A stretch of 64,000 nucleotides of DNA from Patescibacteria group bacterium (GTDB lineage Bacteria; Patescibacteriota; Patescibacteriia; UBA10025; JAHIVO01): positions 877,942 to 941,941 of the forward strand of contig JBMOKY010000001.1 in assembly GCA_049325535.1 (NCBI GenBank). Direction: 5' to 3'. Positions 13,245-42,115 of the stretch are shown here, one piece after another. Made by a program: the position numbers and the translations under genes. The notes below the pieces were generated by a model. That model did no database searches and was not told the DNA's origin. It saw only the letters and a program-made list of their open reading frames with translations. Within the stretch, counting starts at the first letter, position 1. Each line of letters opens with the position of its first letter.

Positions 13245-13262
13245 GGAAATGCGGGGGACGGA

Positions 13263-13625: not shown

Positions 13626-13655
13626 ACTATAACACTATTTTCCTGATATTGTCAA
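13626..13655 (-). promoter_or_regulatory. Sigma70-like promoter for rpsU-yqeY (TTGACA-N18-TATAGT)
   Basis: On the minus strand, TTGACA (13655-13650) and TATAGT (13631-13626) are separated by an 18-nt spacer, about 70 nt upstream of the rpsU start. Confidence 0.4.
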
Positions 13656-13707
13656 TTTACCCAAAAATTGCCCACTCTGGCTATGTCCACGAGAGCAAAC
13701 GATGGTT

Positions 13708-20272: not shown

Positions 20273-20278
20273 AGGGAG

Positions 20279-21139
20279 TTACCCTGTCCAATAATAAAGT
20301 AATATGCTGAAATCAATGACATTCACGGTCGTATCGGCATTGATATCCGCCCGCGCCTGAGACGGGTTGGTCGCATTCCAAAAATACAATAGGATGCTGA
20401 AATCAACGATATCGACGCTGCCGTCACAATTGATATCGCCCGGAGTGGATGCGGCGCACTGATCCACGGCAGCTACTGCCAGCACAAGCGCGGGACCATC
20501 GACGGATGTTTGCGCACCACTGGTAGCGCGTGGAGTGATAATGTGAGAACCGGCGCTGAGTGTCGATCCGGCGATGGTACGTGTCCACGCACCTTGGGCG
20601 TTTGCCGTCACCGTGAATTGCTGGCTCGCGCTGCCTCCGCCAGCCAGGGTGGAAACGATATACATGGTCACGGTGCTACTGGGAACGCTGATACCCTGCA
20701 CCACGACTGATTCCGCTTCGGTAATGCTGGCGATAGACAGCGCCATGGTCGGCCCTAAAAAGATATTGCTTACCGCGGTCGTAGTTCCCTCGCCAAATGT
20801 CAATGTATACGACACCGTAGCGCCAATACGGCCCTGCGTATCCTGGCCAACTAATGTGTAGGTGTGTGTACCCGGAGTGACGATGGTGCTGGATGAAAAA
20901 GAAGCACTGCTATTTGCCGTCGGCGTGGCGATGACGATTCCATCCTGCCGAATCGTCACCGTTCCACCGGGATAGGCCAGACCACTGAACTGGATAATCG
21001 TGTCAGGATCTTCCGCCGGCGCTTCTGGTACGACCGCGCTGACCGTCACATCCACCGCCGATGCAAAACCAGCACTCATCAGCCATACAGCCATGAGTAC
21101 CAGCGTGCCGTACTGGAGTATAGTGCGCGGTCCCAGCAC
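20279..21139 (-). CDS. Secreted Ig-like protein with C-terminal type-I dockerin module
   Basis: 286-aa ORF with a signal peptide. It ends in two 22-aa Ca-binding dockerin repeats, GDINCDGSVDIVDFSILLYFW and ADINADTTVNVIDFSILLYYW, matching the D-x-N-x-D-G-x-V-D-x-x-D pattern. Confidence 0.65.
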   Translation of the reverse strand: MLGPRTILQYGTLVLMAVWLMSAGFASAVDVTVSAVVPEAPAEDPDTIIQFSGLAYPGGTVTIRQDGIVIATPTANSSASFSSSTIVTPGTHTYTLVGQDTQGRIGATVSYTLTFGEGTTTAVSNIFLGPTMALSIASITEAESVVVQGISVPSSTVTMYIVSTLAGGGSASQQFTVTANAQGAWTRTIAGSTLSAGSHIITPRATSGAQTSVDGPALVLAVAAVDQCAASTPGDINCDGSVDIVDFSILLYFWNATNPSQARADINADTTVNVIDFSILLYYWTG

Positions 21140-21150
21140 GATTGTATTGA

Positions 21151-22182
21151 TTACTTCTTATCGGTCGGGGGGGTGGATTGCGTATCGGTCGCACCGCGCT
21201 GCATAGCCTTGGCCACGATCCATTTATTGTACCGGCGCAGGAGCAGCCAGAGCAATACCAGGATAATGATGATGCCAATACCCCAAACGATCATCACATG
21301 CCAGGGCAACACCCAGAAGGTGAGCGTGGCTGATTTGTTTATGGTAGTATCGATACCCGCCTGCGTACTGATCGCTGCGGTATACCGGCCGATGGCGAAA
21401 TTTTTCCGCTCATTTTTGAATTCAGCCCAAAATCCAGTATCCGTCGACACGTCCCCTTTTTGCCATACCGTCTCATATTTACGGATAGTCTGCGGAAGCG
21501 TGGCGCCGTTTGACGGATTAAACTCCAGCGAAGCTACCGCATTGCCAAACATATTATTCACCTCAATCATACCGGTCGGCCGCAAATGGACGTTGCCCGA
21601 ATTTTCGTAGCGCGTAACAAATGTTAGCGGCAGCCGATTGGCGCTGGTCGCATCGTCCTGGAGTATAAATTCCTTGATGTCACCAGCTTCAATCACGTCG
21701 CCTGGCACCCGCGCCAGGAGAAGGATGCCAATCTTGGTGCCCACGGCGATCTGTCCGCCGCTCTGCGCCTCAGGCGGAGTATTGGAAAAAAACACTGCTG
21801 CATAGTGTCCGCCCGGTCCGGCATTTTCCGGAGGGGTGACGGTAATCGGAACGGTTATCCGATCCCCTGGTTCCAGATGAAACGGACCCTCTTCAATCGT
21901 CAACCACGAACTCAGGTCTTCCGGTTCCGCGTCGAACCGATACGACGGCTTGCCCGATTCTCCGGCAGCGCCAAAACTGGTCGCCTCGGTATAGAGATCC
22001 ACGGCGGCATCGGTTTCATTGAATAATTTGACTGACGTCTCATATTCCTGGCCCGGCGACACCTCAAACTCCAGCGACGGTGGGATAATCGTGATCGCCT
22101 GCGCGCCTGCCGCAGCCACCAGGCTGCCGGCAAACACCAGCGATGCTATGACAAGCATTTTTTTATACATACGTTCCTCCAA
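21151..22182 (-). CDS. DUF916/DUF3324-like cell-surface protein (CscA-like): signal peptide, beta-rich ectodomain, C-terminal TM anchor
   Basis: 343-aa ORF. Its size and architecture (signal peptide, two beta-rich domains including the segment ...ENAGPGGHYAAVFF..., C-terminal helix WVLPWHVMIVWGIGIIIILVLLWLLLRRYNKW) match the DUF916-DUF3324 proteins encoded in WxL clusters. The family assignment rests on architecture and motif resemblance only. Confidence 0.45.
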   Translation of the reverse strand: MEERMYKKMLVIASLVFAGSLVAAAGAQAITIIPPSLEFEVSPGQEYETSVKLFNETDAAVDLYTEATSFGAAGESGKPSYRFDAEPEDLSSWLTIEEGPFHLEPGDRITVPITVTPPENAGPGGHYAAVFFSNTPPEAQSGGQIAVGTKIGILLLARVPGDVIEAGDIKEFILQDDATSANRLPLTFVTRYENSGNVHLRPTGMIEVNNMFGNAVASLEFNPSNGATLPQTIRKYETVWQKGDVSTDTGFWAEFKNERKNFAIGRYTAAISTQAGIDTTINKSATLTFWVLPWHVMIVWGIGIIIILVLLWLLLRRYNKWIVAKAMQRGATDTQSTPPTDKK

Positions 22183-22246
22183 AAAAAGTATTAATAGAGC
22201 AATGACCTGATGCCGCTGTTCGTGTAGAAGCTCCGTGTCAGTATCA

Positions 22247-23287
22247 CTAGAATGTCGCGGTGGCGATGTAGGTCAGATCAGCGGTATAAGTGCCAGCCTC
22301 GGTATCAGAGGCGATATTGGCCACGTACCGGGCAGAATAGGTTGTGTCTGACGAAGGTCCGCCAACTGAAGCAACTTCATCCGGAAAATTTACGGTGTCA
22401 AAGGCAAAACCCGCAGCCGCATACGGCGCTGATACCGCTCCCGACCCGCCGGAGGCGGTAAAGCGAACGCCAAACTGTTCGGCACCACCGCCATTTGGCG
22501 CGGTATTGGTGCCACCAATAGCGGTGATGGTATCGAGTCCAGCCGAGGTCAGTGTAGCGCCGTCCAGGGTGATGGAATACCCACCGGTGGCATTGGTCCC
22601 AGCTACTAGATCATGTGCTCCTGTCTCAGTCGCCGATCCAGTGCCGGCGCCATTGGCATACCGGTCAGCCGTGGTACTGAGTGAACCAAATCCGACGGAT
22701 GTGTCAGAAATGCTGAAGGTCAATGACGGGTCTACTGTAGCACTGACCGTCACCGTGTCATCTGAGACAATAGCCACCGACAATGAGCCGGAATCTGATG
22801 TGGTGGTAATATCGATCTCGTACGTATCGGCTGATGAGGGATTGGTAATCTCACCATTGGCTATAGCAAGTGTCTTGGCTCCGGCCGTCACCGTATCTCC
22901 GGTACACACCGTTAGGGTAATATTTTCATCCGGCGCGCTGGTATCGACTGCTGCGGTTACTTCGGCAGCAGCGCCGGTACAAGCATCCACCACGGTCAGT
23001 CCTGTCCCGGTCATATCGGCGTAGTCCAGCGTACCTTTCAACACAAAAGCGTCTGCCGCCGGATCAAACTGGATTTTGATGGTCTGCCCTGCGGTCAGTG
23101 CGGTAGCGGTGGTAAAGGTAATCTCATGGTCTGAATCGGTCGATGCCTGTAGTCGAGTCATGGTATCACTCAGATTTGTCAAAGCATCCGCGTGGAGAGC
23201 CGCCCGGGGTATGCTGATGGTCGCCGCGACCAGGAGCACGAGCATGATGATGGAAAATCGTTTTGAATAACGTGTGGCTTGTTTCAT
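22247..23287 (-). CDS. Small secreted WxL-like-domain protein (CscB/D-like); C-terminal ~160-aa domain shared with the 4422-aa protein
   Basis: 346-aa ORF with a signal peptide. The C-terminal domain (FSISDTSVGFGSLSTTADRYANG...GGYSITLDG...AGTYTADLTYIATATF) aligns position by position with the C-terminus of the giant protein (FSISDTTIGFGSLSATQDRYATG...GGYSIDIDG...AGNYTSNITYIITPEF). The pattern resembles the WxL domain (F-x-F-G start, proximal G-x-G-WxL, distal AGTYTAxLTWTL), with W replaced by Y. Confidence 0.55.
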   Translation of the reverse strand: MKQATRYSKRFSIIMLVLLVAATISIPRAALHADALTNLSDTMTRLQASTDSDHEITFTTATALTAGQTIKIQFDPAADAFVLKGTLDYADMTGTGLTVVDACTGAAAEVTAAVDTSAPDENITLTVCTGDTVTAGAKTLAIANGEITNPSSADTYEIDITTTSDSGSLSVAIVSDDTVTVSATVDPSLTFSISDTSVGFGSLSTTADRYANGAGTGSATETGAHDLVAGTNATGGYSITLDGATLTSAGLDTITAIGGTNTAPNGGGAEQFGVRFTASGGSGAVSAPYAAAGFAFDTVNFPDEVASVGGPSSDTTYSARYVANIASDTEAGTYTADLTYIATATF

Positions 23288-23432
23288 AAAATTCTATTAT
23301 GAATGAATACTTAGGTTTTTCTTAAACCTCCTAGATCATTCCTCCTATTTTTATTTTATCCGTTTATAGTATATCATCTTTTGCTGTCTCCGTCAATAGT
23401 ATACACTATCACTGGCCAAATATCAACATACA

Positions 23433-26400
23433 TCAAAATTCCGGCGTTATGATATAAGTTATATTCGACGTATAATTCCCCGCCTCGGTCTGAGAGCTGA
23501 TATTACTCATATATCTGACTGAATAGGTGGTGGTGCTCGATGCGCCGGCTGATGTGGCAAATGTATCCGGAAAATTTATGAGATCATAAGCAAACCCCGC
23601 ATCGGCATACGGCGCGCTGACTGAGCCGCTCCCGCCGCTAGCGGTGGCGCGGATACCATACTGCTCGGTACCGGTCTGCGATGCGGTGTTGGTGCCACCA
23701 ATATAATCAATACTATCCCCCGCGCCTGAAGTCAGAGTAGTGCCGTCGATATCGATACTATACCCCCCGCCGCCACTGGTAGCAGCCGCCAGAGTATGCG
23801 CCTGCACTTCTGTGTCTGATCCCGTACCGTCGCCCGTGGCATACCGGTCCTGCGTGGCGCTCAATGAGCCAAATCCGATGGTAGTATCGGAGATACTGAA
23901 ACTCATACTATTGATCAACCAGCAGTCGTTATTGGTAGCGTCAAAATTCGTGCCATTGGACGCGTCGATATCGGGCGCCTGGCCGCAGGCGTCTGAATCG
24001 CGCACGTTGGTATTGGACACTGACCGGGTACCGGCCACATGGATATCCCACTGGGTGCCGGTGGAAGAACTGCGCAAGAAAACCCGGGTGCCCGTCGCCT
24101 GGCCATTGAAGGAAATATTCTGGAAGGTATAGGTCGATCCGGCATTGAAACGCAGCTTGGTATTGGCCGTCGTGGCAGTAAAATTATTATCCGTTTCAGC
24201 AGCGGCGCTGAATATTACCGAGGGACTGGTCTCTGGATTTGAGCCGGAGCTATTGGTGATGGTAAGATTATAAAATGCCGAAGCGCCGGTCATGGTGCCG
24301 GAAAATGTCTGCTGGTTGATGCCGTCGGCGGTAACCGTACCCGACCGCGCTTCAAAGATGTCATTATTGGTCCAGTTTCCCGCTAGATACACCGAATAAT
24401 TACTTAAATTTTTCGTATCCAGTGTACCGCCGGTAATGGTCAGGTTTCCATTGACATCCAGATTTGATTCCAGCTGAAAGGTGTCACCATTGGCACTGTC
24501 ATTTAATACGACGTGGAAAAAATCATCACACGCGGCACACTGTGCGCCGGATGAATCAATATAGATGGTACCGCCGGGTTTGGCCGCACCGGTAAAGGTG
24601 GCCGTCGCCAGCTGTGACGTGAATGTGTCAGCATTGGTCCAGTCCCCGCCGATAGTTATAGCATTGCTTTCTGTGGATTTGGTATCGAGTATACCATCGG
24701 TAATGGTGATGTCATTTTCCACGGTCAGCGGATCTTCGATCTCGACCGTCAAATCGTACGTGCCGCCGCCGTCATCGATCACCAGATCATACGGATTGCC
24801 GGTACCGGCGGTGATCAGATCGCTGGTCACATCGCTGACAGCGGTAGCCGGAATCGTGAATGCCAGCGTAGAGCCGACATTCGTGCCGTCGCTGTTATTC
24901 AGCTGGGCGCCGGACTGGAGGTCAAATTTTCCATCGGTGGCCATATAGGTCCCATCAGTCTCCACATCATCATCCACATCCAGCCGGCCACCGCCCGATC
25001 CCCCATCAGCCGCGATGGTGATGCCCCCGATCCCGATATCCAAATCATACCCATGGGTATTGAATACATCACCATCATTAATGGTCAAAGACTTAGCAGT
25101 CATGTCAGTGGCCAGGTCAGTCGTATCAGGCGACGTGCCAATATGCACGTCTCCGACGCTTGTTTGGGTGACGCGGTTATCGGCGTACGTCAGATCGCCG
25201 TCGAGAATCAGCAGACCGGACGTAGCGGGATTGAACGTAGCGCCGGATGCGATGGTAAAATCACCGGCCACATTCAGATTTGACGACGCGTGATGGGTAA
25301 ATGAGCCGCTGGACACCGTAAACGTACCATTGACATCCATGGCGTCAGCACTCGAAACTGATCCGACACCTACCTGAAAATTCGACAGAGTTTTTCCGCC
25401 TGACGTGATCACTTTACTGGCGCCATTCATCAGCAGCGTGTGCCCAGCGGTCGCCGTAAACGTGTCGCAATTGCTCAAGGTCGTATTGCCAGTCACGGTC
25501 CAGGTCGCAGTGCCAGTAGTCACGCTGTTTGTGCTGGCGCCGGCGGTGCAGGATAGATCGTTGCCCACCGTGATGACGGCATTGTTGCTGGCCGCATTCA
25601 GATGTACGTTATGTGACCCATCACCGACGACCAAATCATGGGTGATGCTGTTTGCCGTGGGGCTGGTGAAGGTATAGGCGGGTGTGGCGCCGCCGCTTGG
25701 TTGGACGTGCAGATTATAATAGTAACTATAATTCGACAGGCTCTGGATGTCGGTAGCGACCTCGCCGGTGTACCGGAACGTGGATGTATTTCCCACGATC
25801 CGACCATTATTGATCACCGGCCTTGATCCACCGGTGCCGCCCTGGGTGATCACCCACGTTTTTGATCCCGCATGCAGCGCGTGACCATAGCACGACTCCT
25901 CGGTACAGCCGCAAATCTCCAACGGGTCGTACACCGCATCGGTAGTGATGACGCCGGTCACCGTCATCTGTCCCGTGCCTGTCGCGGTGGTTATCCGGTC
26001 AGCGCACTGGGTGGTGGATGACAGATGGAAATTATTGATCGACCAGGCGGTGTCGCCACCAAAACTCCCGCTAGTCGAAGGTATGGTCAAAGTGCCGGCA
26101 GTCAGATTCAAAATCCCATCACCGGTAATATCACCACCAGTGACCGTCAGATTTTGCGCGCCGGTGACGGTCGTGCCGCTACCTACCACCATATCATTGG
26201 AAACGGTCATGGGATCATCCAGCGTAATCGTGCCACTGCCTGAAGTCTGGAAATTATACGGGGACGTGTCACTGCCATACACATTATCAACAAACAAGGT
26301 GCCGGTCCCGTTCATGATCAGGGTACTGCCCGTGTCTGGAATAAACTGACCACGGGTCAGCTCGACATCGCCGCCGACCGTCCAGGTGCCGGCGCCGGCG

Positions 26401-29400: not shown

Positions 29401-32400
29401 CTCTCCGAGGTGAGCTGATGGCTGACGGTCATTTCCCCGCTCCCCTGGGCGGTCATGGTGTAGCTGGCCGTACAGGCCCCACTGTAGCCGGCAGTCAAAT
29501 TATAAAATGTCCAGTTGGTATTCCCGGCGATGGTCGAGGTGTTCTGCACTTCCACGGTGCCGCCGGTCATATTGACGGTGCCATTACCGCTGAAGTCCCC
29601 CAGCACGGTGATATTGCTGGTACCCTGGATAGTGCCGCCATTGGCGGTGATATTCCCCGTCACATTCAGCGCGTTGCTCACCACCAGCGTACCCAGCGTC
29701 ATGGTCACATTGCTATTCACTGTCGTGGCGGAATTCAGCGTCCACTGCCCGCCGGAGCCATTGAACACCACCGTATTCACATCAGCATCCGTGGCGCTCG
29801 TGCTGTCGATGGTTTCGGTAGTGGTTGATTCAAAAGTAATCGTCTCGCTCGCGGCGTTATAATCCCCATTATTATCCCAGGACCCAGATACGGTCACCGA
29901 CGCGGCCGGGGTCAATTGCCCGTTGATTTCCACATCATGCGCTTCGAGCAAATCACTCCCGGTCAAATCCAGATGCGATCCCGACAGGATGCGTAGTTTA
30001 TCATCAGCATACACATCGTCATCGTCGACGGTAAACACCGGGCCATCCAGAGATGTCCAGCAGGAAAACATGATGTCCTCATCATTCACATTTTGATAGG
30101 TCGTCGCCGTACAGTGGCTATCCGTCAGCGTGGGATTGTCATCACTGCCGATAGTCAGTACGTGCGTATCGAGCACCATGCCGGTGATGTGGCCACTGCC
30201 GTCGTAAATGGTGATAGCCGTCGATTCGTTATCATTACCCACGTTATCAATCCATACATAGACCTCATCCCCGGATGACGGAGCGGTCACACCGGAAATC
30301 GTCCAGGTGCCGGAGGAAATCGTGGTCGTGGATCCTTGGAGGGTGCTATTGTACGCGTACCGTACGGTCGCGCCTTCATTGCCATTGGCCGTGCCAGATA
30401 TGGCAAACCCAAAATTCCAGTTCGTATTGGTGCCACAGTTGGTATTGGTGCCGTCATCGGCACCGATCTCACTGCCGCTTGATGCGTCAGACCGGGCCAC
30501 ATCGACATATGAGACAGCCGTCTGGGTTCCGGAAACATTGAGCAGCCACGTGCCGGAGGTCAGATTTGAATTCCGAAATACGATGAAGTTACCTACTGAA
30601 CCCGCCCAATTGATATTATTGACGGTGTACGTAGATCCGGAATTGTACTCTACTTCCACGCTGCCAGTGGTGATAGTGTAGGTGCCGGAGATGGTAGCCG
30701 CGGCTGCGAAATCGATGCTGGGGTTAAAAGACGTGGAGCACCCGGACCATGAACCGGCGGTGTTGGTCAGGATCAGATTATAAAAATTATTAGTCGAGGT
30801 AGTCATCGATCCGGACAATGTCTGCTTGGCAGTTCCGGACAGAGTGACTGTACCGAGATTATCGGTAAACGTACCATTATTGGTGTAGTCTCCTTTCAGG
30901 TCAAACGAACCGGTATTACTCGCTTCCCATACGGTACCCGTACCGATAGTCAATGCTTGAGTAATGGTAAATGTCGGATCGTAGGTATTCACCTGCACGG
31001 TCAGGGTCCCGGCACCCGCCCGGGTAGTGGTCACCCCTCCAGTAATGCTGAACGTGCGGCCGGCGGTATCCCCGAGGGTGATCGTCCGTGATGAAGCGGA
31101 ATTATTATACAGTTCCAAGATTTTACCCGACCCGACAAGCGTCCGGGTGCTGGCGGTGCCATTGACAGTGATGTCATTTGACGTGGCGTCCAGCCGAATA
31201 TTAGCACTGATCGAAGGACTGGCCGGCAGTGTCGATGCCTGGACGATGAGAGTCCCGTCGCCGCTGATGATAGAGGACGAATTATTAGCCAGTGAACCCG
31301 TGCTGGCCACCGTCGCGCTGTATGAACTGGCGATATCCAGCTGGGTAAGAGACGCGATGCTTAAGGTGTTGGTTACGGTCATATTTCCCGCTTGCATGTG
31401 TGCCACAGTTCCAAATCCGGTCAGGGAAAAATTATAAAACGAAGTACCATTTGGATACAGCGCGTCATCATCATCACCATCCATAGCCAGCGTATTGCCG
31501 GACGTGGCAGTATATGTCCCACCGGTGAAATCGACGATGTTGCTCACGGTCCACGTGCCTGTGCCGGAAGTGATAGACTCGCTTCCGCCACCGGTGCCAG
31601 TGAAGTCCAAATCACCGCCGATAGTCACCGTCGGATTATTGGTATTTGCCGCTACCGCCATCGTCTGGGTGCCGGCTGCCAGTACATGAAAATGCGCGCC
31701 TGAACCGGACAGAGTATAGGTGCCCGAGGCCAGGGTGGCCGTGCGCGTCCCGGCACTACTGCTGGAATAAAACTCTACCGGCCCAGCATACGTCCGGGCG
31801 TCGATGGTCGTCGATGCCACATCGCCACTCGTCGCGTCATAGCGAGTGATGGCACTCAAGGTACCGGTCGTCCCCGGACCACCGGCGCCATTCGGATAGA
31901 CTAGCCGTCCCGCACCGGATACCGTGCCATTGAGGGTGGTGTTGGCCGCATTGGTATGGGTCACGGTCCGGTCCGATCCGATGGAAAGCACATCATCAGT
32001 ATCGATATTCAGAGTATTGGTCACGGTCACATCATTCGAGCCGCCGACCGTCACCGTACCGACGGTACTGTCACCGATGGTCAGATTATAAAATGTGGTG
32101 TCGGTGGTGCCATTGATAGCGCCATTGCCCACCAGTTGCACCGTACTGGTACCACCGGTATACGTGCCGCCGTTATTGGTGAAATCACCGGTCACCGCCA
32201 TGGTATTGTCATTGCCATTGAATGTCTTGCCGGAACTGATGATAAATGACCCGGCTAAGTTTAAGGTCTGCGTGGTACTGTCATTAAATTTACTGTCCTC
32301 ATCGACCTGAAAATTATAAAACGAATGTGCCGCTGCCTGCACGTCATAATACGTCCGGGACGAGGAATCACCGCCGCCATTCAGCCCTAAATGCAGCGTG

Positions 32401-35400
32401 CCGCCACTGGGCGCCCCCCCAAGTCCATTACCCGTCACCAGCGTGGCAGTATTGTACACCAGGAAACCCCGAGCATAGAGATGGCCTCCAGTCATATAAA
32501 AATTGACGGTGCCAGGAGTGGTGTTTGCCCATTCCACGATGGCATTGTTCCCGGCATACACGCTGGCACCGGCCAGATAGGTGGTCGACCCGGCGCGCAG
32601 ACGGATATGCGAACTGTTTGCCGTATCGCCGGTGATGGTACCTGCGCTCCAATACCCCGTGCCGCCGGTGGCCTGGTACTCACCAGTAAATATGACACTG
32701 GCGCCAGTATCAAATATCAGCGTTCCGCCGCTGTGAGCGATGGTGCTGCCAGTTCCATTGCCCCAGACATTGACCGCTGTACTGATGGTCGTCGTGCCAT
32801 TGCTGACCAGGAGGTCATCGGCGATATTGATAGTGCCACCAGACAATGTCGTGGTACCGGTAGACGATAAATCTTCAACCAATCCATCGCCAATCGCAAA
32901 TGTGCCTCCGCTTACATTGAGCGTGCCTGTGACAGTGACACCGCTGTCACCATTGGCATTTGTCGAGTTTTGGACATTGAGCGTGGCGCCGGTATCGATG
33001 GTCGTGCTGCCGGCGATGGTATTGGTCGCGGTATCCAGGTACATGGTGGCACTATCATCCACATGCAGCGAACCGGTCCCCTGAGTGGTCACGGTGCCGT
33101 TCGGATCATACGTATCACCGGTCCAGAGGTGCAGTTCGAAATTTGAATCAACCGTCAGATTTGATGAGGCGACGTCGAATTTCACGTCGCTGTCTCCGCC
33201 CTCCCGGTCGCCTGACTCCAGATTCGCATTGGTGATGGATGCCCCATAATCGTTGCGCACGATGACGCGATTTTGGTACAGGTGGGCATTGGTCTGCGTG
33301 GTGCCATCGCTCTTGAATACCGTAGTCGCTTCTTCCGTCTCCTCATCCACAAATATGGTGATGACATCCCCGGCTGAGGCAGTCACGTTTGCTATGGTAT
33401 AGTCCCCGCTCGAGGTTTCTGCCGTGCACGCCCCGCCACCGCACGCGTTCGCATTGCCATTGACCCACAGTACGATGGTCTTTGCCGATGCGGTTATCTT
33501 GGTCGATCCTTCGTCAGAATACAGCGATCCGCCGATGCTGATGCCGCTGGCGGCACCGCAGCCGCTGGCATTGGTACACTCGGCCAGGATCACGTCGAAA
33601 TACTGCGGCTTGTGGTCAGTGCTGGCATTGAACGATGCGGTGATGGTATGCGTGTGGGTGCTACGCGCCACACCAGTGCCAGCAGCCGTACCGCCTGAAT
33701 TGGCGGATGGGGTTCCGGTATTGCCGCTGGTCTGATTGGCCATGCTATGGGTATCGGCTGATTGGGGGGTAGCGGAATAGCTAGATGACCCGCGGATGAA
33801 TTGGCCATTGTACGTCTGGCTGGCGCCAGACACCGTGGTCCAGCCAGTCGGCGGCGCGGCGTCCCACATGGCGATCATATTTTGCGGCACGCTATTGTCC
33901 GCCGTGGCCTGATAGATGAGCGACTGGATGTAGGAAGGTAAAGAGGTATATGAAGTGGAATTGGTAGCGGTAGGCGCGGTATGGGTATGAGTAAAAGATG
34001 CGGACCGGTACGTTGCCAAACCGATATCCTCATCAGCCGAGCCTGATGCGGCGGTCAGTGATCCCCAGGTCAGCGAATGGGTGTGCGTGTTGGCCGTCCC
34101 GCCAGTCGCGTGGGAATTATTTATTTTTACCATGCGGTCGTCCGCGCTACTGAATTGGGACCAGCTGCCGCTGGGTGTGGTATCGAAAAACACAAACGCA
34201 TTATTCGGAATGGTAGTGGGATCTGTGGAATTGCTTTTCCACAGGTAAAACGTGTAATTGAGCGGATCATTATTAGCGCTGCCCACCGTCAGACTATTGA
34301 TCCCATGGGTATGACTGGTCAACGACATGATGGAACAAAAATCAGAGCATCCATGGTCAGATACTTCCGTGGACGGCGCGCTGATAGTCTGGCCGGAGAC
34401 GGTGTGCGTGTGCGATGTCGCACCGCCCGAGGGCGGGGTAGCATCGGTACTGGCCGCACCACGAGGATAGTAGCCATTGTAGGTCGTATCAGTCGTCCAC
34501 CCGGTGGGTGCCGAGCTGGAATTCCCCAGTACAAACATATAGGCCGGATCGATGACCAGCTGCCAGGCGCGCGCCTCCTGCCACTCACCCACCTGCGCCG
34601 GGCCAAAAGCAAATAGTGCCGGACTTTTTTCTGGCGATTTGAATGCATAGGTCAGCTCGGTATCGCTTCCCGCTGCCAGATCCACCTCCCACACGATGGA
34701 ATGCACGATGGCCGACCCGGTGTCATACGGCTCCACGCGCCCGCCCTGACCCGGCTCCACCGTAAATTCACCCGGGATGAGCTCACGTACTATGCCGGCG
34801 AAATCATCGCGCGCATGTACCCGCAGCGTCATCGGCTGAGGCACATTCGGGAAAACGCGGGTGGGACCCTGCCGGGTAATATAATACGCCGGGTCCTCAG
34901 CTACGGTAAACGAATCAGTCAGCCGCCGCTCGTCCCCCTGTACCGCGGCAACGAGCTCCACGCTATATCGCCCGATAACGGTCGGCGTGTACACGGCCAC
35001 ATAGTCCGGTCCCTCGTAGACGTCTTTCACCGAGCAATAGTCGGTGACCGCAATCGACCCATCGGCTGACGACAGGATGGAGACGGTGCCCTGAGGATCA
35101 GTGATCCTGAGCAGCATGTCCGCGGTACAGACGATATGGCCGGTGTCATCCACCGCGCCGAGAGAAAACGTGACGTCCTGCCCGAGCCGGTACTGCGCCT
35201 GGTCGGTATTCATGGCCAGTCCGCCCCAGACAAACTCATAGACGACCTCCTTGGTCCGGCCATCCTGCTCCACTGCCACGGTCACCGAGTATTTGCCCGG
35301 CCGGGTAAATGAACCAGTGCCCACCGTCACCGCTGCGGTCGTGTCACCGCCAGATTCTGATTCGGTGACAGCGATTCGCGCGTCCTGGGTGGTGCCATTG

Positions 35401-36701
35401 GGGTCGGTGATGGCCACGTTTTTGATTTCGCGGGTAGTCGGCTCGACGCCTAAGAATTCGAAATTGGACCCTTCTTTTATAGTGACGTCAATCACCGGCT
35501 GCTCATCCAGGGCGAAATTACCGTCACCCTCCACATCGACAAATGCGGTACTCTCCTCGATCTGCTGGATGACCGGGTCCGGCTCCTGCACCGTCGCCCG
35601 GACGGTCACCCCGTCTATCCATGCCGCCGTGGCTGCGTCCGCCGAGCCAGAAGCAAATGTTGCCCGGAATCGAACTTGGGTGATCTGGGCGATGCTGGTG
35701 ATATCAGGAAGCGGATAGATGAAAAAATCTCCATGAATAGCGTTGCTAAAATTTTCAGTGAGCGCCATCGATTCCAGTGCCATCCAGGTCTGGCCGGCAT
35801 CAGCCGAATACTCCAGTACCAGCACATCATCACTGGCAGAGTCCCCCTGGGCGGCTAATGAAATCGCGAGGGCCACCTCGGAAATAGTAGATGCTGGATC
35901 CACGCTGTCCGGCAGCCGGAACCCGCCAACCGTGAGGATTGGGTCAGAGGTATCCAGCGGCGCATCGGTGACCTCACCGATAGAAGCGGGCTGATCCTCG
36001 ATCACGGTAGTATGCTCTATCTCCACCGGCTGTTGGTCGGCCGGCTGCAATGCGTGGAAATGCGCAGCATTGTCATCGGTGAAATCGCCGATACCCGCCG
36101 TGGGCAGCGCATCGATCTCCATCACTGCCGCAGTCGCATCCCAGCCCGCAGCCGTACTCGGTGCCAGTGTGTATGTCTCTACCGGCGCCTGTCCAGCCCG
36201 AGCCAAATAAATATAGGCAAAGAAGCTGACCTGCACTACGGCAAACGTAAATGCGACGAGGAGGACGGAAAAAATGTATAGGGAAAATTTACGGCTCAAA
36301 AAATACAGCTGGAACCAGCGCCAGGAAAATCCCGGTTTGAGCACGTAGCGATTGTCATCTGATTCCGGCACGACTGGTGCGACAGGCACTACCACGATCC
36401 GCTTGTGCGGCGGCAGCGACTGATAGAAGGAGCGGATCGCTTCACGGTCATATCGTCGGTCCTGCCGGATACCGATGCGGACAGCACGAAGCCGACCAGA
36501 ACGGTCCCAGTTCCGGAGGGTATTTGGGTGCACGCCAAGGATTTCGCTGACCTGCTCTATGGTGAGCAAATGCGGCAGCGAATCAAAGTCTATGGAGCGT
36601 TCCTGTACGGTTGGCGTCTGTTTTTGTTTTTTCTTAAACCAAAACAGCTCCACGAATTTACTTTTTACTTTCGCTTCAATTAGCGAAAAATAATCATTCA
36701 C
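23433..36701 (-). CDS. Giant (4422 aa) surface protein: N-terminal excisionase/MerR-type HTH + TM segment, ~4000-aa Thr/Gly/Ser-rich beta-helix-like repeat region, C-terminal WxL-like domain
   Basis: 13.3-kb uninterrupted ORF with a GTG start at 36701. Residues ~45-95 (LLTIEQVSEILGVHPNTLRNWDRSGRLRAVRIGIRQDRRYDREAIRSF) match the HTH_17/excisionase DNA-binding domain. Residues ~130-165 form a TM helix. Internal repeated modules such as GTRIDLARSSGVGSWNLVVTGTQSVRYANPSNSSACGG recur several times. The C-terminal 160 aa are homologous to the 346-aa neighbour. Confidence 0.6.
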   Translation of the reverse strand: MNDYFSLIEAKVKSKFVELFWFKKKQKQTPTVQERSIDFDSLPHLLTIEQVSEILGVHPNTLRNWDRSGRLRAVRIGIRQDRRYDREAIRSFYQSLPPHKRIVVVPVAPVVPESDDNRYVLKPGFSWRWFQLYFLSRKFSLYIFSVLLVAFTFAVVQVSFFAYIYLARAGQAPVETYTLAPSTAAGWDATAAVMEIDALPTAGIGDFTDDNAAHFHALQPADQQPVEIEHTTVIEDQPASIGEVTDAPLDTSDPILTVGGFRLPDSVDPASTISEVALAISLAAQGDSASDDVLVLEYSADAGQTWMALESMALTENFSNAIHGDFFIYPLPDITSIAQITQVRFRATFASGSADAATAAWIDGVTVRATVQEPDPVIQQIEESTAFVDVEGDGNFALDEQPVIDVTIKEGSNFEFLGVEPTTREIKNVAITDPNGTTQDARIAVTESESGGDTTAAVTVGTGSFTRPGKYSVTVAVEQDGRTKEVVYEFVWGGLAMNTDQAQYRLGQDVTFSLGAVDDTGHIVCTADMLLRITDPQGTVSILSSADGSIAVTDYCSVKDVYEGPDYVAVYTPTVIGRYSVELVAAVQGDERRLTDSFTVAEDPAYYITRQGPTRVFPNVPQPMTLRVHARDDFAGIVRELIPGEFTVEPGQGGRVEPYDTGSAIVHSIVWEVDLAAGSDTELTYAFKSPEKSPALFAFGPAQVGEWQEARAWQLVIDPAYMFVLGNSSSAPTGWTTDTTYNGYYPRGAASTDATPPSGGATSHTHTVSGQTISAPSTEVSDHGCSDFCSIMSLTSHTHGINSLTVGSANNDPLNYTFYLWKSNSTDPTTIPNNAFVFFDTTPSGSWSQFSSADDRMVKINNSHATGGTANTHTHSLTWGSLTAASGSADEDIGLATYRSASFTHTHTAPTATNSTSYTSLPSYIQSLIYQATADNSVPQNMIAMWDAAPPTGWTTVSGASQTYNGQFIRGSSSYSATPQSADTHSMANQTSGNTGTPSANSGGTAAGTGVARSTHTHTITASFNASTDHKPQYFDVILAECTNASGCGAASGISIGGSLYSDEGSTKITASAKTIVLWVNGNANACGGGACTAETSSGDYTIANVTASAGDVITIFVDEETEEATTVFKSDGTTQTNAHLYQNRVIVRNDYGASITNANLESGDREGGDSDVKFDVASSNLTVDSNFELHLWTGDTYDPNGTVTTQGTGSLHVDDSATMYLDTATNTIAGSTTIDTGATLNVQNSTNANGDSGVTVTGTLNVSGGTFAIGDGLVEDLSSTGTTTLSGGTINIADDLLVSNGTTTISTAVNVWGNGTGSTIAHSGGTLIFDTGASVIFTGEYQATGGTGYWSAGTITGDTANSSHIRLRAGSTTYLAGASVYAGNNAIVEWANTTPGTVNFYMTGGHLYARGFLVYNTATLVTGNGLGGAPSGGTLHLGLNGGGDSSSRTYYDVQAAAHSFYNFQVDEDSKFNDSTTQTLNLAGSFIISSGKTFNGNDNTMAVTGDFTNNGGTYTGGTSTVQLVGNGAINGTTDTTFYNLTIGDSTVGTVTVGGSNDVTVTNTLNIDTDDVLSIGSDRTVTHTNAANTTLNGTVSGAGRLVYPNGAGGPGTTGTLSAITRYDATSGDVASTTIDARTYAGPVEFYSSSSAGTRTATLASGTYTLSGSGAHFHVLAAGTQTMAVAANTNNPTVTIGGDLDFTGTGGGSESITSGTGTWTVSNIVDFTGGTYTATSGNTLAMDGDDDDALYPNGTSFYNFSLTGFGTVAHMQAGNMTVTNTLSIASLTQLDIASSYSATVASTGSLANNSSSIISGDGTLIVQASTLPASPSISANIRLDATSNDITVNGTASTRTLVGSGKILELYNNSASSRTITLGDTAGRTFSITGGVTTTRAGAGTLTVQVNTYDPTFTITQALTIGTGTVWEASNTGSFDLKGDYTNNGTFTDNLGTVTLSGTAKQTLSGSMTTSTNNFYNLILTNTAGSWSGCSTSFNPSIDFAAAATISGTYTITTGSVEVEYNSGSTYTVNNINWAGSVGNFIVFRNSNLTSGTWLLNVSGTQTAVSYVDVARSDASSGSEIGADDGTNTNCGTNTNWNFGFAISGTANGNEGATVRYAYNSTLQGSTTTISSGTWTISGVTAPSSGDEVYVWIDNVGNDNESTAITIYDGSGHITGMVLDTHVLTIGSDDNPTLTDSHCTATTYQNVNDEDIMFSCWTSLDGPVFTVDDDDVYADDKLRILSGSHLDLTGSDLLEAHDVEINGQLTPAASVTVSGSWDNNGDYNAASETITFESTTTETIDSTSATDADVNTVVFNGSGGQWTLNSATTVNSNVTMTLGTLVVSNALNVTGNITANGGTIQGTSNITVLGDFSGNGTVNMTGGTVEVQNTSTIAGNTNWTFYNLTAGYSGACTASYTMTAQGSGEMTVSHQLTSESCSCGMECAYYARLATGDKIWHFTGSGTGTGAPTYGLNISSWGASTFSFEGTAATDVYGGTLYNLRLDPASGTPSYTLNGGSLYGDLYIDTLVSFSHTSGTALQMAGDGKTIDAGGKTFYRVYVNGTNNTVTVANTDFTTSNYLIVSSGSTLTINSGRSVTTGSPLWLSDGTINGAGLLVFTDTANLDAGGTLDVDVRLDATAGPVDDTLFVARAYGGDLELYNNSGGSRLFEAGAGTLTVSGNFSSNSPSGSNLVEMTPPTVTITGSFTLPSGDSLQGWSSMSIGGNMSVDGNFSSGTATITLNGTSTQTITGTLTGVNSFYDLIVTNASVGGVVFSSSTDVDGTFTATTANTNLGFVGGTTHTWVNININGQAVGTRIDLARSSGVGSWNLVVTGTQSVRYANPSNSSACGGDSIRAYDGTSNDGGSNNCWIFTGVTVSGAIYSDQGSTLYNCSANNITIHGATNGESADTATCTSGDGTFSISVLPPSSAGDPIILYIDSGESIQANFVTLAADTSSAITGARLYDNWIIVRHENAGPMTNADMLAADNGDAGVIYYDAGYLQLDSGRNLLLWSGDSFDPGGKINTGGGSQLYLEDGSEMWFDAGTTYFSGGITIANVLSDPAALHVDATSMTSTVTVNGTMDGTGDFTILSSLTGNGTVAMTGGTMTFPYTSTIGGAEDWSFSSMEFTHASCGSKTSSFTGAGSFTFSGTLTTDTCFNLETWTHVIDPNDKLIILTMSSGTPMDAILAGQPVNNSIVRYTGTSVTVDNSFYSTLQLQPSSSTTYTLQSAVTTIVYSNMTVNSNVTLSAGTSTLYVGGASVTLDLNDETLYNLDVYPSGTGTVTVQNTDFSVSNTMTVDTSDTLSIPSGRTVTLNSTGSLTLNGVISGAGRLAYRPATAFPTTGTISSILRFDCTNNNTIMSDRTYGGDVEFYMPGGASRQVTIGTAGSQTPDITGNLTLINSDFDFLLTADASGYDPSVTIGGDFSNNGAGGITTIGAGAGTWTVGGDVELTRGQFIPDTGSTLIMNGTGTLFVDNVYGSDTSPYNFQTSGSGTITLDDPMTVSNDMVVGSGTTVTGAQNLTVTGGDITGDGILNLTAGTLTIPSTSGSFGGDTAWSINNFHLSSTTQCADRITTATGTGQMTVTGVITTDAVYDPLEICGCTEESCYGHALHAGSKTWVITQGGTGGSRPVINNGRIVGNTSTFRYTGEVATDIQSLSNYSYYYNLHVQPSGGATPAYTFTSPTANSITHDLVVGDGSHNVHLNAASNNAVITVGNDLSCTAGASTNSVTTGTATWTVTGNTTLSNCDTFTATAGHTLLMNGASKVITSGGKTLSNFQVGVGSVSSADAMDVNGTFTVSSGSFTHHASSNLNVAGDFTIASGATFNPATSGLLILDGDLTYADNRVTQTSVGDVHIGTSPDTTDLATDMTAKSLTINDGDVFNTHGYDLDIGIGGITIAADGGSGGGRLDVDDDVETDGTYMATDGKFDLQSGAQLNNSDGTNVGSTLAFTIPATAVSDVTSDLITAGTGNPYDLVIDDGGGTYDLTVEIEDPLTVENDITITDGILDTKSTESNAITIGGDWTNADTFTSQLATATFTGAAKPGGTIYIDSSGAQCAACDDFFHVVLNDSANGDTFQLESNLDVNGNLTITGGTLDTKNLSNYSVYLAGNWTNNDIFEARSGTVTADGINQQTFSGTMTGASAFYNLTITNSSGSNPETSPSVIFSAAAETDNNFTATTANTKLRFNAGSTYTFQNISFNGQATGTRVFLRSSSTGTQWDIHVAGTRSVSNTNVRDSDACGQAPDIDASNGTNFDATNNDCWLINSMSFSISDTTIGFGSLSATQDRYATGDGTGSDTEVQAHTLAAATSGGGGYSIDIDGTTLTSGAGDSIDYIGGTNTASQTGTEQYGIRATASGGSGSVSAPYADAGFAYDLINFPDTFATSAGASSTTTYSVRYMSNISSQTEAGNYTSNITYIITPEF

Positions 36702-37557: not shown

Positions 37558-37651
37558 AGAATGAACTCAGTGTAGCACGCTAAACGAAAAAAGTGTATTG
37601 GCACCTTTTGACGCACGGCCTCTATTTTATTATAATAACCCCACTCAACCT

Positions 37652-42103: not shown

Positions 42104-42115
42104 TCAGCAGCGCCA

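Follow-up and report, generated by a model that had tools for sequence, protein, structure and literature searches.

A probable Pam-type pilus operon with a giant candidate tip adhesin and a proposed cohesin-dockerin anchor in a Patescibacteria genome

Results

Six co-oriented genes in an order largely kept across genomes

The window, by which we mean the whole 64,000-nucleotide stretch of DNA that was analysed, contains three consecutive minus-strand open reading frames at 23433-36701 (4422 aa), 22247-23287 (346 aa) and 21151-22182 (343 aa), in agreement with the tripartite layout described in an earlier note on this DNA. For the 343-aa frame, translation most likely starts four codons downstream (MYKKM), giving a 339-aa product (21151-22170) that is 100% identical to a public database entry and is called in the same way in four independent assemblies. 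Past 21151 the unit continues with three more genes in the same orientation, which overlap or lie 6-11 nt from one another: one for a dockerin protein (20279-21139) and two for cohesin paralogues (19124-20272 and 16713-19127). The earlier note had placed the first three genes, separated by 7-145 nt, in one operon. A co-oriented operon is indeed what we find, but its extent differs from that proposal, in that it comprises six genes, the first three gaps of which measure 145 nt, 76 nt (or 64 nt if translation begins at the TTG) and 11 nt. The features of the locus are as follows.

23433..36701, minus strand: giant protein and proposed tip adhesin, 4422 aa (open reading frame and translation)
36420..36569, minus strand: DNA-binding HTH_17 domain (excisionase/MerR-like), fused in frame at residues 45-94 of the giant protein (PF12728)
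36195..36287, minus strand: hydrophobic segment, giant protein residues ~139-167, followed by A-R-A (167-169), seen in the translation
23436..23912, minus strand: C-terminal Pam pilin domain, giant protein residues 4264-4422 (NF058581)
23288..23432, minus strand: intergenic region 5' of the pilin gene (two sigma-70-like promoter matches in tandem, AGGAGG ribosome-binding sites)
22247..23287, minus strand: putative major pilin, 346 aa, with signal peptide, N-terminal beta-sandwich, conserved linker strand and Pam pilin C-terminal domain (NF058581)
22724..22762, minus strand: pilin residues 176-188, DDTVTVSATVDPS, the proposed donor (linker) strand (family conservation)
21151..22170, minus strand: putative pilus chaperone, 339 aa, with DUF916-like and DUF3324-like Ig domains and a C-terminal transmembrane (TM) helix (WxLIP homology, AlphaFold2)
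20279..21139, minus strand: dockerin protein and proposed base or terminator, 286 aa, with signal peptide, donor-like strand, two Ig-like domains and a type I dockerin at residues 233-280 (PF00404)
21026..21055, minus strand: VDVTVSAVVP, a donor-like strand with which the mature dockerin protein is predicted to begin, after ..GFASA (close to the pilin linker VTVSATV)
19124..20272, minus strand: cohesin protein, 382 aa, with signal peptide, Ig-like domains, C-terminal TM helix and basic tail (PF00963)
16713..19127, minus strand: second cohesin paralogue, 804 aa when read from MKRVF (a length also called in assemblies)

The gene order (large candidate tip protein, pilin, membrane-anchored chaperone, dockerin protein, two cohesin proteins) is largely kept over 79 genome loci, with the pilin gene followed by the chaperone gene in 77 and preceded by a gene for a protein with the same C-terminal domain in 58. 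Judged by relatives of the pilin, at least 154 species-level genomes have this type of operon. CPR record titles predominate among the 79 loci, four of which are titled 'uncultured Gammaproteobacteria bacterium'. Loci of the Doudnabacteria type have pilin-chaperone pairs but no dockerin or cohesin genes. In the region between the giant and pilin genes, the two promoter matches (TTGATA-17-TATACT and TTGACG-17-TATACT) each agree with the consensus at 10 of 12 positions and are consensus matches only. Separate, strong promoter-like sites of this kind are what a gene for a major subunit would be expected to have.

The shared C-terminal domain belongs to the Pam pilin family

The ~160-residue C-terminal domains (CTDs) of the giant and 346-aa proteins are 64% identical over 159 residues (E 5e-61), bearing out the shared domain of the earlier note, and the strings FSISDT..GFGSL, GGYSI and TYI are confirmed in the sequences. 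This identity, together with the existence of hundreds of homologues in which the domain is always C-terminal, rules out a low-complexity artefact. The NCBIfam model NF058581 ('CPR_Pam_pilin_C', cutoff 55) is passed by both the 346-aa protein (70.9 bits) and the giant protein (68.1 bits). In scans of the whole giant protein this match was hidden by the bias filter of HMMER, and the last 199 aa were used instead; our own family HMM recognises the CTD of the giant protein with an E value of 6.2e-66 when the filter is off. The identification of the domain as WxL in the earlier note was not upheld, as PF13731 (WxL) had no match at E<=1 in the giant protein, the 346-aa protein or 36 family members. 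Passage of the Pam pilin model also means that the system is not an undescribed branch, as had been thought, since Pam pili, donor-strand-exchange pili of CPR bacteria, were published in a 2026 preprint on the PamA, PamB, PamT, PamC, PamD and PamR proteins of Ca. Mycosynbacter amalyticus (Troman et al., bioRxiv 10.64898/2026.03.03.709456).

A resemblance to WxL domains does exist below this level. HHalign comparisons of the CTD with 15 WxL domains gave P values of 0.002-0.005 and probabilities of 5-10%, which are only suggestive. The alignments pair YSI and TYI with the two WxL motifs, with Tyr at the Trp positions, the equivalence that the earlier note had drawn. Among nine beta domains, CTD and WxL form a reciprocal best pair (P 0.003) that is collinear and stronger than the accepted DUF3324 pair. 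Searches of PDB sequences with pilin, pilin-family and CTD profiles returned no relative and no match to PamA or PamB. An SCPU/Csu or TasA fold for the CTD was not adopted, both being absent among the top matches listed; TLP-1b was the sole strand-exchange fibre subunit among the matches listed.

The 346-aa protein has 397 homologues, and its AlphaFold2 model (pLDDT 90.2) consists of two beta domains joined by residues ~176-188. Few stretches of the family alignment are as conserved as this linker, in which D177, V179, A183 and V185 are invariant or nearly so. By comparison, the filaments of PamA and PamB solved by cryo-EM have a linker strand donated into the CTD, and this linker is reported to be the region of highest conservation in Pam pilins (bioRxiv 10.64898/2026.03.03.709456). 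From motif conservation and by analogy with PamA and PamB, we infer that the pilin linker is a donor strand. All 120 pilin orthologues have the corresponding motif (VTVSATV), as against 4 of 85 CTD carriers with a length of at least 450 aa (background 2%) and 1 of the 31 large CTD carriers encoded upstream across the genome loci. In all of the best 150 representatives the CTD reaches the protein C-terminus to within one or two residues, a position that fits a chaperone recognising the C-terminus, as for chaperone-usher pili.

A putative membrane-anchored chaperone homologous to WxLIP

In its AlphaFold2 model (pLDDT 90.5), the chaperone starts with a signal-like helix and ends with a TM helix, with two beta domains in between, and HHalign aligns its family with WxLIP at 98% in local mode (E 2.9e-13, 226 columns, both domains) and 99.2% in global mode. 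Taken by halves, the comparison gives P values of 9e-10 for DUF916 and 0.009 for DUF3324. The family profile also finds EfmWxLIP1 in the PDB (E 4.6e-5). The DUF916/DUF3324-like architecture and TM anchor assigned in the earlier note are therefore well founded, and at the family level the chaperone is a true relative of Firmicute WxLIP. Profile matches to the three families that the note had named were uneven: for DUF916, PF06030 is matched by 14 of 34 chaperone family members (with the chaperone of the window, at 14.5 bits, under the Pfam cutoff of 27.3); DUF3324 is recovered by HHalign but not by PF11797, which matched none of the 34; and WxL is not recovered by PF13731. NCBIfam searches of the chaperone family matched no Pam chaperone model. 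The protein does agree with the Pam chaperones in being PapD/FimC-like and in ending with a TM helix. More distant relatives of the chaperone occur in a metagenome-assembled genome titled Dehalococcoidia and on a contig that we infer to be non-CPR. The Dehalococcoidia relative adjoins fatty-acid genes by a contig end and is uninformative.

A donor-like strand opens the dockerin protein

The dockerin gene lies directly 3' of the chaperone gene in 62 of the 79 loci, and a cohesin gene follows it in 53 of these 62, with a C-terminal hydrophobic run in 39 of the 53 cohesin proteins. In the window, the dockerin (PF00404, E 2.9e-8) and cohesin (PF00963, E 2.5e-6) matches are both over Pfam cutoffs. 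Because a pilin-type strand opens the dockerin protein after its signal peptide, this protein is probably the base of the fibre, docked on a membrane-anchored cohesin, and we propose the 382-aa cohesin protein as the membrane anchor that receives it. The donor motif occurs within the first 70 aa of the dockerin proteins of 51 of 62 loci under a strict definition and 60 of 62 under a relaxed one, against a background in other open reading frames of 21/289 (7%) and 48/289 (17%), respectively; the 11 of 62 dockerin proteins that miss the strict motif count against the pilus reading. In the loci inspected, the N-terminal strand of the dockerin protein resembles the linker of the cognate pilin locus by locus. 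Most loci have a second cohesin gene. In the window, the N-terminal 350 aa of its 804-aa product resemble the 382-aa protein (33% identity over 352 aa, E 8e-46) and are followed by membrane-spanning segments and two CarboxypepD_reg (transthyretin-like) domains (PF13620, E 1.2e-14). This protein is possibly an alternative anchor.

Family memberships, folds, gene order and the distribution of strand motifs together make it likely that the products of the locus build a usher-less pilus related to Pam pili, with strand exchange, polymerisation and docking as its presumed modes of assembly. The principal alternative is a static WxL/Csc-type surface complex without polymerisation, in which the CTDs would bind permanently to the WxLIP-like protein and/or to peptidoglycan, with the small protein as an adaptor. 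Such a complex would accommodate the genuine WxLIP homology of the chaperone-like protein, a gene layout like that of CscA/CscB/CscC and the collinear, reciprocal best likeness of CTD and WxL among nine beta domains, as well as the picture of WxLIP in the literature, which is that of a permanent, stabilising anchor of WxL domains rather than an assembly chaperone, with a DUF916 strand predicted to insert into WxL. We nevertheless consider it unlikely, since the Pfam WxL domain is absent and the CTD instead passes the model of pilins that experimentally form filaments. It also leaves three things unexplained: the strand conserved before the CTD only in the ~350-aa class of proteins, the recurrence of that strand at the start of the CTD-less dockerin protein in 51-60 of 62 loci, and the conservation of a separate cohesin-TM anchor. 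A donor-strand-exchange pilus is the better reading than non-covalent anchoring to peptidoglycan.

Cohesin-dockerin pairs are common outside pili, as in cellulosomes, and the operon could in principle hold two independent neighbours, in which pilin and chaperone form a Pam-type fibre, dockerin and cohesin belong to an unrelated, cellulosome-like CPR scaffold, and the CTD of the giant protein serves only for export or quality control. That Doudnabacteria-type loci have pilin-chaperone pairs alone does imply that the modules are separable. Independence is, however, rather improbable in view of the regularity with which dockerin (62/79) and cohesin (53/79) genes follow the chaperone gene, at spacings of no more than 30 nt in 50, the resemblance of the dockerin N-terminal strand to the cognate pilin linker in the loci inspected, and the tip-like lack of a donor motif in 30 of 31 large upstream CTD proteins.

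A giant protein as the probable tip subunit

From N- to C-terminus, the 4422-aa protein comprises the HTH_17 domain, a TM or signal-anchor segment, a Thr/Gly/Ser/Asn-rich ectodomain of ~4,000 residues and the Pam pilin domain. The CTD runs to the C-terminal Phe, and no donor-like strand is found upstream of it (NNDCWLINSMSFSISD). As the conserved linker strand of the pilin is missing, the giant protein is probably a tip subunit. Searches against Pfam with the whole protein and with eight segments matched nothing besides the HTH, leaving the ~4,000-residue ectodomain without a match, and a BLAST comparison of the protein with itself did not find clean internal repeats. Such a carrier is not exceptional in size, as had been supposed, in that 37 of the top 147 cluster representatives of the pilin-domain family exceed 1000 aa. 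The composition filter of HMMER conceals the pilin domain in giant proteins, and tip adhesins of this kind are probably under-annotated as a result.

The HTH_17 match is over the gathering score (E 9.1e-10 in the whole protein and 7.2e-11 in its first 600 aa). A DNA-binding domain at the N-terminus of a secreted adhesin is odd and counts against the pilus reading; the start codon of the giant protein is a predicted one. Residues ~139-169 may be a signal-anchor or a signal peptide with a long n-region, with a possible signal-peptidase site. Orthologues of the giant protein are 3654-4603 aa long, and those of 4603 and 3654 aa share its CTD. An annotation or assembly artefact, whether fused HTH and adhesin genes or a pseudogene, is very improbable even though HTH_17 is a separate gene of 59-71 aa upstream of large proteins in Doudnabacteria-type loci and the GTG start has no clear ribosome-binding site upstream, because the frame passes from the HTH to the remainder with no stop codon, is unbroken in four independent metagenome assemblies (4422-4423 aa), and has orthologues, and because the HTH is likewise fused in the 4603-aa Kerfeldbacteria orthologue and, at a distant locus, in a protein of 3220 aa.

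Discussion

Our analysis indicates that positions 16713-36701 of the window probably encode a six-gene Pam-type pilus operon, in a CPR (Patescibacteria) bacterium related to Candidatus Kerfeldbacteria. In the mechanism we propose, all six proteins would be exported by Sec, and the 339-aa chaperone, kept in the membrane by its C-terminal helix, would fill the open CTD groove of fresh subunits in the manner of PapD. The 346-aa pilin would then polymerise head to tail, with the linker strand (TVTVSATVDP) of each subunit inserted into the CTD of the preceding one. The 4422-aa protein, which has an acceptor CTD but no donor strand and would for that reason be restricted to the distal tip, would occupy this position like FimH, PapG or PamT and display ~4,000 residues of adhesin. 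At the proximal end, the 286-aa dockerin protein, with a donor strand at its mature N-terminus and no acceptor CTD, would cap the fibre, and binding of its C-terminal dockerin to the cohesin of the 382-aa membrane-anchored protein would tether the fibre to the cell.

In the Pam operon, the chaperones are PapD-like and anchored by TM helices, the tip pilin lacks a donor strand and the terminator carries a strand at its N-terminus (bioRxiv 10.64898/2026.03.03.709456). The locus described here shares with it a CTD that passes the family model, a two-domain pilin with a conserved linker, a PapD-like TM chaperone, the lack of an usher and a CPR host, to which we propose to add a donor-less tip subunit and a CTD-less base subunit with an N-terminal strand. 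There are also marked differences. One major pilin and one chaperone are encoded here, whereas Pam has three pilins and two chaperones. Instead of a PamT of ~240 aa, the candidate tip adhesin has 4422 aa and bears an HTH_17 in its N-terminal part, and scores against the PamT equivalog NF058579 (26.3 and 38.0 bits) lie far under the cutoff of 240. The terminator and anchor, combined in Pam in one RbmA-like TM protein, are split here into dockerin and cohesin-TM proteins, and the locus encodes no PamR-like protein that would unite an N-terminal strand with two FnIII domains and a TM helix at the C-terminus. ATP-synthase genes were not found in the scanned parts of the window. Finally, the lineage is Kerfeldbacteria-like, with relatives titled Paceibacterota, Doudnabacteria and others, while the preprint stresses Saccharimonadia and Microgenomatia. 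The locus is thus a divergent branch of Pam and not the M. amalyticus operon. Cohesin, dockerin, WxL and DUF916 are nowhere mentioned in the Pam preprint.

With chaperone-usher pili (Fim, Pap, Csu, CFA/I) the operon has in common an incomplete C-terminal Ig pilin domain and, as in FimH and PapG, a tip in which a receptor-binding part is joined to a pilin domain lacking a donor strand. It differs from them in having no usher or outer membrane (no usher family was among the Pfam matches of the operon proteins or scanned neighbours), a chaperone that is membrane-anchored and a donor strand that is an interdomain linker, and sequence similarity to them is undetectable. The TLP-1a/b fibrils (CryoSeek, PMC11494351; PDB 9IKJ, 9IKK) are built differently, from single-domain subunits with an N-terminal donor strand that pair n with n+4 in an 8-nm tubule, and TLP-1 gave no sequence-level match. 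The proposed base recalls the anchoring of cellulosomes through the scaffoldins of Clostridia, with a type I dockerin of two Ca-binding repeats and a cohesin on a cell-bound partner encoded adjacent to it; here, however, the anchor is a TM helix, not SLH or sortase, and the cargo is the proposed base of a pilus rather than enzymes.

Csc clusters of Firmicutes encode CscA (a WxLIP with DUF916, DUF3324 and TM), a small WxL protein (CscB), a large WxL protein (CscC) and an LPXTG protein (CscD) (Hassan et al. 2023, PMC10599100; PDB 9i1y, 9i25), and they have been described as peptidoglycan-binding complexes, not pili. The likeness to the present locus extends to a chaperone homologous over both domains and the TM helix, to small and large clients that adjoin it and share a domain at the extreme C-terminus, and to collinear motifs in that domain (LSIDF..FG for LTFSIS..GFG, GWSL for GYSI and LTWxL for LTYIA). 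A base-like small LPXTG protein and the small WxL client have a common N-terminal [ST]xGx[IV]xF strand in five WxL loci on plasmids (four of these being distinct), a parallel to the strand shared by the dockerin protein and pilin. The CPR proteins depart from the WxL pattern in lacking PF13731 and having Tyr for Trp; in a pilin with an extra N-terminal beta-sandwich, whose donor strand is an internal linker and not an N-terminal strand with a Pro-rich spacer; in a chaperone without the NQIDKxxxYFDLK insert; and in a dockerin that leads to a cohesin-TM anchor with no LPXTG or sortase. No LPXTG (CscD) protein is encoded at the locus, and the dockerin protein takes that position. On one contig of presumed non-CPR origin, two paralogous family chaperones adjoin a WxL-type client (WxL HMM E 1.2e-6, HHalign 80%) and a Pam-CTD-like client that ends TYTATLNYIASTL.

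These parallels raise the possibility, to which we give slightly less than even weight, that Pam-type CPR operons, Firmicute WxL/Csc clusters and related clusters from other lineages are members of one old superfamily of usher-less donor-strand-exchange fibres with a membrane-anchored WxLIP-type chaperone. If so, the WxL domain may be a pilin acceptor rather than primarily a peptidoglycan-binding module, large proteins with WxL or Pam CTDs may be tip adhesins and small ones shaft subunits, and the base subunit may combine the same donor strand with a lineage-specific anchor, namely LPXTG and sortase in Firmicutes and dockerin with cohesin-TM in CPR bacteria. A paper on 'signal-strapping' makes only a passing mention of DUF916.

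CPR bacteria are thought to live attached to hosts, in a manner that is largely obscure. If the pilus reading is true, the operon would combine a cheap strand-exchange fibre with very large, highly variable tip proteins that are candidates for host recognition, and it would place a cohesin-dockerin joint at the base. To our knowledge, the anchoring of a pilus through cohesin and dockerin has not been described before. The role of DUF916/WxLIP proteins and the retention of WxL proteins on enterococci, listeriae and lactobacilli have been debated since csc clusters were described. Because WxLIP is homologous to a putative pilus chaperone, and cryo-EM structures exist for relatives of that pilus, this debate becomes a matter of direct experiment. 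For the Firmicutes, the question is raised whether CscB, CscC and CscD form strand-exchanged fibres, and the idea that WxL clusters are cousins of Pam pili becomes a testable lead.

A giant protein and a pilin share a Pam pilin domain

Three consecutive minus-strand ORFs, read in the earlier note as a WxL/Csc surface module of the Firmicute kind, were found in the window:

23433-36701, minus: giant protein, 4422 aa, proposed tip adhesin
22247-23287, minus: pilin, 346 aa, proposed major subunit
21151-22182, minus: chaperone as first read, 343 aa

The chaperone ORF is 100% identical to a 339-aa protein of 'Patescibacteria group bacterium', and this shorter start (21151-22170) is called in four independent assemblies. 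The giant gene is intact (4422-4423 aa) in the same four assemblies, which excludes an artefactual ORF. The G+C content of the operon region (52-58%) does not differ from that of its surroundings.

The last ~160 residues of the giant protein and the pilin are 64% identical (159 residues aligned, E 5e-61). The C-terminal domain (CTD) that the two had been proposed to share is therefore real, and compositional similarity is ruled out. Pfam searches found no WxL domain in either protein (E<=1) or in any of 36 pilin-family members. Instead, both C-termini matched the NCBIfam model NF058581 'CPR_Pam_pilin_C' (70.9 and 68.1 bits, against a curated cutoff of 55) and, weakly, the PamT equivalog. As both models originate from a 2026 preprint on Pam pili (10.64898/2026.03.03.709456), the system cannot be called undescribed, as had been suggested; of the WxL/Csc reading, the gene layout and the chaperone stand, whereas membership of the WxL family and novelty of the system do not.

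Searching the two CTDs against 1.84 billion cluster representatives returned 673 clusters at E<=1e-3. The domain formed the protein C-terminus, or stopped no more than two residues short of it, in 150/150 of the best representatives, and its carriers ranged from ~190 aa to 3243 aa (37/147 of those retrieved exceeded 1000 aa). The pilin has ~400 full-length homologues, with relatives confirmed in 154 species-level genomes. We kept 79 loci for comparison, with lineages taken from record titles, which name many CPR groups: Paceibacterota/Parcubacteria, Doudna-, Kerfeld-, Falkow-, Magasanik-, Kaiser-, Taylor-, Harrison- and Nomurabacteria, Peribacteria and 'Saccharibacteria'; in four cases the title alone gives Gammaproteobacteria.

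Ca. Mycosynbacter amalyticus, a CPR parasite, makes Pam filaments that have been resolved by cryo-EM; in them two pilins, PamA and PamB, polymerise by donating a linker strand into the neighbour's C-terminal domain (10.64898/2026.03.03.709456). An AlphaFold2 model of the window's pilin (pLDDT 90.2) has two beta domains joined at residues ~176-188. The junction strand, DDTVTVSATVDPS, is among the best-conserved parts of the family alignment, in agreement with the preprint's account of the donated linker.

The operon also encodes dockerin and cohesin proteins

Three further genes follow the chaperone gene, with gaps of 6-11 nt or overlaps:

20279-21139, minus: 286 aa, type I dockerin (PF00404, E 2.9e-8)
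19124-20272, minus: 382 aa, cohesin (PF00963, E 2.5e-6) and C-terminal TM helix
16713-19127, minus: 804 aa, membrane segments and CarboxypepD_reg domains; paralogous to the 382-aa cohesin protein (33% over 352 aa, E 8e-46)

The 79 loci were screened with our own HMMs, those for dockerin and cohesin proteins being rough models built from 4-6 syntenic orthologues. The pilin gene was followed by the chaperone gene in 77/79 loci and preceded by a CTD-bearing gene in 58/79, of which 31 were large or ran off the locus edge. A dockerin gene followed the chaperone gene in 62/79 loci, and a cohesin gene followed the dockerin gene in 53, with a gap of <=30 nt in 50. In Doudnabacteria-type loci, which lack dockerin and cohesin genes, the pilin-chaperone pair is repeated. 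Ahead of the window's pilin gene, the 145-nt gap holds two strong promoter-like sites which, although consensus matches only, fit a need for far more pilin than tip protein.

Donor-strand motifs distinguish the pilin, the proposed tip and the proposed base

We searched for a donor motif, [VI]x[VILA]xAx[VI], directly upstream of the CTD. It was present in 120/120 pilin orthologues, 24/49 CTD proteins of 260-450 aa and 4/85 carriers of at least 450 aa, compared with 2% of background windows; among the large upstream carriers of the genome loci it occurred in 1/31. The giant protein of the window has NNDCWLINSMSFSISD at this position. A subunit with an acceptor domain and no donor strand could occupy only the distal end of a fibre, the same logic as for FimH, PapG and PamT, the last a donor-less, single-domain tip pilin (10.64898/2026.03.03.709456).

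The dockerin protein shows the converse arrangement, having no CTD but a donor-type strand directly after its predicted signal peptide. Its mature start, ..GFASA|VDVTVSAVVPEAP, can be set beside the pilin linker DDTVTVSATVDPS, and in the loci inspected this strand resembles the linker of the cognate pilin (VNISAVV/VNVSATV, VSVSATV/VNVTATV). Within their first 70 residues, 51/62 dockerin proteins contained the strict motif and 60/62 a relaxed form, versus 21/289 and 48/289 other ORFs of the same loci. A subunit that caps the proximal end would be expected to carry such a strand. Its equivalent in the published system is the N-terminal strand of PamR, a terminator that also has a TM helix (10.64898/2026.03.03.709456); in the dockerin protein, however, a dockerin replaces the TM helix, which is found on the proposed partner, the cohesin protein.

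The chaperone is a homologue of WxLIP

In the AlphaFold2 model of the chaperone (pLDDT 90.5, pTM 0.78), a signal-like helix precedes two Ig-like domains, and a long helix forms the C-terminus. The earlier note's description of it as DUF916/DUF3324-like is correct as homology, judging from profile comparisons: the family profile matched EfmWxLIP1 among PDB sequences (E 4.6e-5), 14/34 family members matched Pfam DUF916/WxLIP_PGBD (the window's chaperone itself scores under the Pfam threshold), and HHalign against seven WxLIPs from annotated plasmid WxL clusters gave 98% probability locally (E 2.9e-13, 226 columns spanning both domains) and 99.2% globally. By description it is also a membrane-anchored PapD-like chaperone in the preprint's terms, in which PamC and PamD of the pam operon are PapD/FimC-like chaperones with a C-terminal TM helix (10.64898/2026.03.03.709456). 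In one chaperone subfamily (~530-550 aa, for example in Falkowbacteria; among proteins P0193-P0224), the TM helix is followed by an additional LytR_C domain (PF13399), and a LytR_cpsA_psr plus LytR_C protein is encoded on the opposite strand at 37598-39136, ~900 nt upstream of the operon and beyond a glycosyltransferase gene.

Relationship of the CTD to the WxL domain

As the WxL family is defined, the CTD does not belong to it. When a 184-sequence CTD alignment was compared with 15 WxL domains by HHalign, P was 0.0052 locally and 0.0023 globally; reversed controls had P 0.036-0.2. The alignment is collinear, pairing LTFSIS..GFG with LSIDF..FG, GGYSI with EGWSL and TYTADLTYIA with EYRTTLTWNL. 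It thus places YSI and TYI at the WxL motif positions, as had been proposed, but at a probability of 5-10% and with no Pfam WxL match. In an all-versus-all comparison of nine beta-rich domains of these systems, CTD-WxL was a reciprocal best pair and second overall (P 0.003), ahead of chaperone D2-DUF3324 (P 0.009), a pair accepted on context; the remaining 33 pairs had P>=0.045.

A bridging locus (metagenome contig ERZ27249833 k141_893134, 6412-13802; L102) encodes two paralogous WxLIP/Pam-type chaperones (E 2.8e-63 and 3.4e-14 with the window-family HMM). One adjoins a 177-aa WxL-type protein (E 1.2e-6 with the WxL HMM built here, HHalign 80%) with Gln in place of the second Trp, and the other a 190-aa protein with the Pam-like motifs ..AGYAVTV.. 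and ..TYTATLNYIASTL, whose CTD similarity is weak but whose end resembles a Pam CTD. From its chaplin-like and sigma/anti-sigma neighbours we infer that this contig is not from CPR. We regard the WxL domain and the Pam CTD as plausible but unproven homologues.

Five plasmid WxL loci (four of them distinct) encode a small LPXTG (CscD-like) protein whose mature start has the strand motif that also opens the mature form of the locus's own small WxL protein (AYDSNGVTSFF with EYTSNGAITFE, VETEGSIRFTG with VTTEGKIEFRP, AVGTTRISFVS with GQGDTKVTFTA). The dockerin protein of the CPR operon is related to its pilin in a similar way. A published AlphaFold2 prediction has a DUF916 strand inserted into WxL; taken with it, the shared motif suggests, as a lead from few loci, that WxL clusters, too, might be built by strand exchange on a base anchored in the wall. 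The WxL cluster of E. faecalis plasmid NZ_CP124902.1 (5842-11934; L005) has as its large member a 1424-aa protein annotated 'pectate lyase-like adhesive domain-containing protein', with a WxL-like tail; it is a possible parallel to the giant protein's large ectodomain in the CPR operon.

Other features of the giant protein and its surroundings

An HTH_17/excisionase-like DNA-binding domain (36420-36569; giant residues 45-94) is fused in frame ahead of the giant protein's TM segment. We also see this fusion in a 4603-aa orthologue from Kerfeldbacteria and in a 3220-aa protein encoded at a distant locus. Doudnabacteria-type loci carry HTH_17 as a separate 59-71-aa gene beside the pilus genes; the observation extends to the related loci L013, L104, L015, L041, L045 and L076. 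The domain might act as a regulator that is tethered to the membrane and coupled to export of the adhesin. Giant residues ~764-1020 (33642-34412) contain five [ST]HTH[TSG] motifs in ~260 residues (SHTHT, SHTHG, THTHS, THTHT, THTHT), reminiscent of the metal-binding HxH repeats in phage tail fibres; a 'tail fibre-like protein' is mentioned as a constant neighbour of pam operons (10.64898/2026.03.03.709456).

A second giant surface protein (4553-12745, minus; 2730 aa) lacks a Pam CTD. Its N-terminus matches the T4SS pilin domain (PF18895, E 1.2e-10; in NCBIfam, a VirB2-like conjugative pilin family), after which come numerous Ig-like domains (Big_5, Big_7 and Big_3_3) and stretches rich in Cys. 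Downstream, at 1202-4487 (minus), lie three more secreted or membrane proteins, one with a choice-of-anchor X domain and Cys-rich repeats and two with thrombospondin-type-3-like DxDxDG repeats and Asn/Thr-rich low-complexity tails. Genes for a T2SSE-family ATPase (PilB/PilT-like) and PilM at 41030-43168 (plus), ~4.3 kb upstream of the giant gene start, indicate that the organism probably also has type IV pilus machinery, separate from the Pam-type fibre.

A Pam variant with a proposed giant tip and a proposed cohesin-dockerin base

The operon belongs to the recently described Pam kind of pilus, with strand exchange and docking as predicted properties. In the assembly we propose, its proteins would be exported by Sec and their CTD grooves capped transiently by the membrane-anchored chaperone; the giant tip protein would nucleate the fibre, the pilin elongate it and the dockerin protein terminate it, with dockerin-cohesin pairing tethering it to the membrane. 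Cohesin, dockerin, WxL, DUF916 and adhesins all go unmentioned in the preprint (10.64898/2026.03.03.709456). As read from its genes, the operon is a widespread, undescribed variant of Pam with a giant tip adhesin, one pilin, one chaperone and a cohesin-dockerin base.

When the whole giant protein was scanned, the CTD match was lost under the HMMER bias filter and regained with --nobias. Matches suppressed in this way in whole Thr/Gly/Ser-rich giants (of the window and the related loci L013 and L014) reach E ~1e-58 to 1e-66, and giant carriers are thus probably under-counted. In the largest carriers, the domain will be missed by standard annotation pipelines, the filter being a HMMER default.
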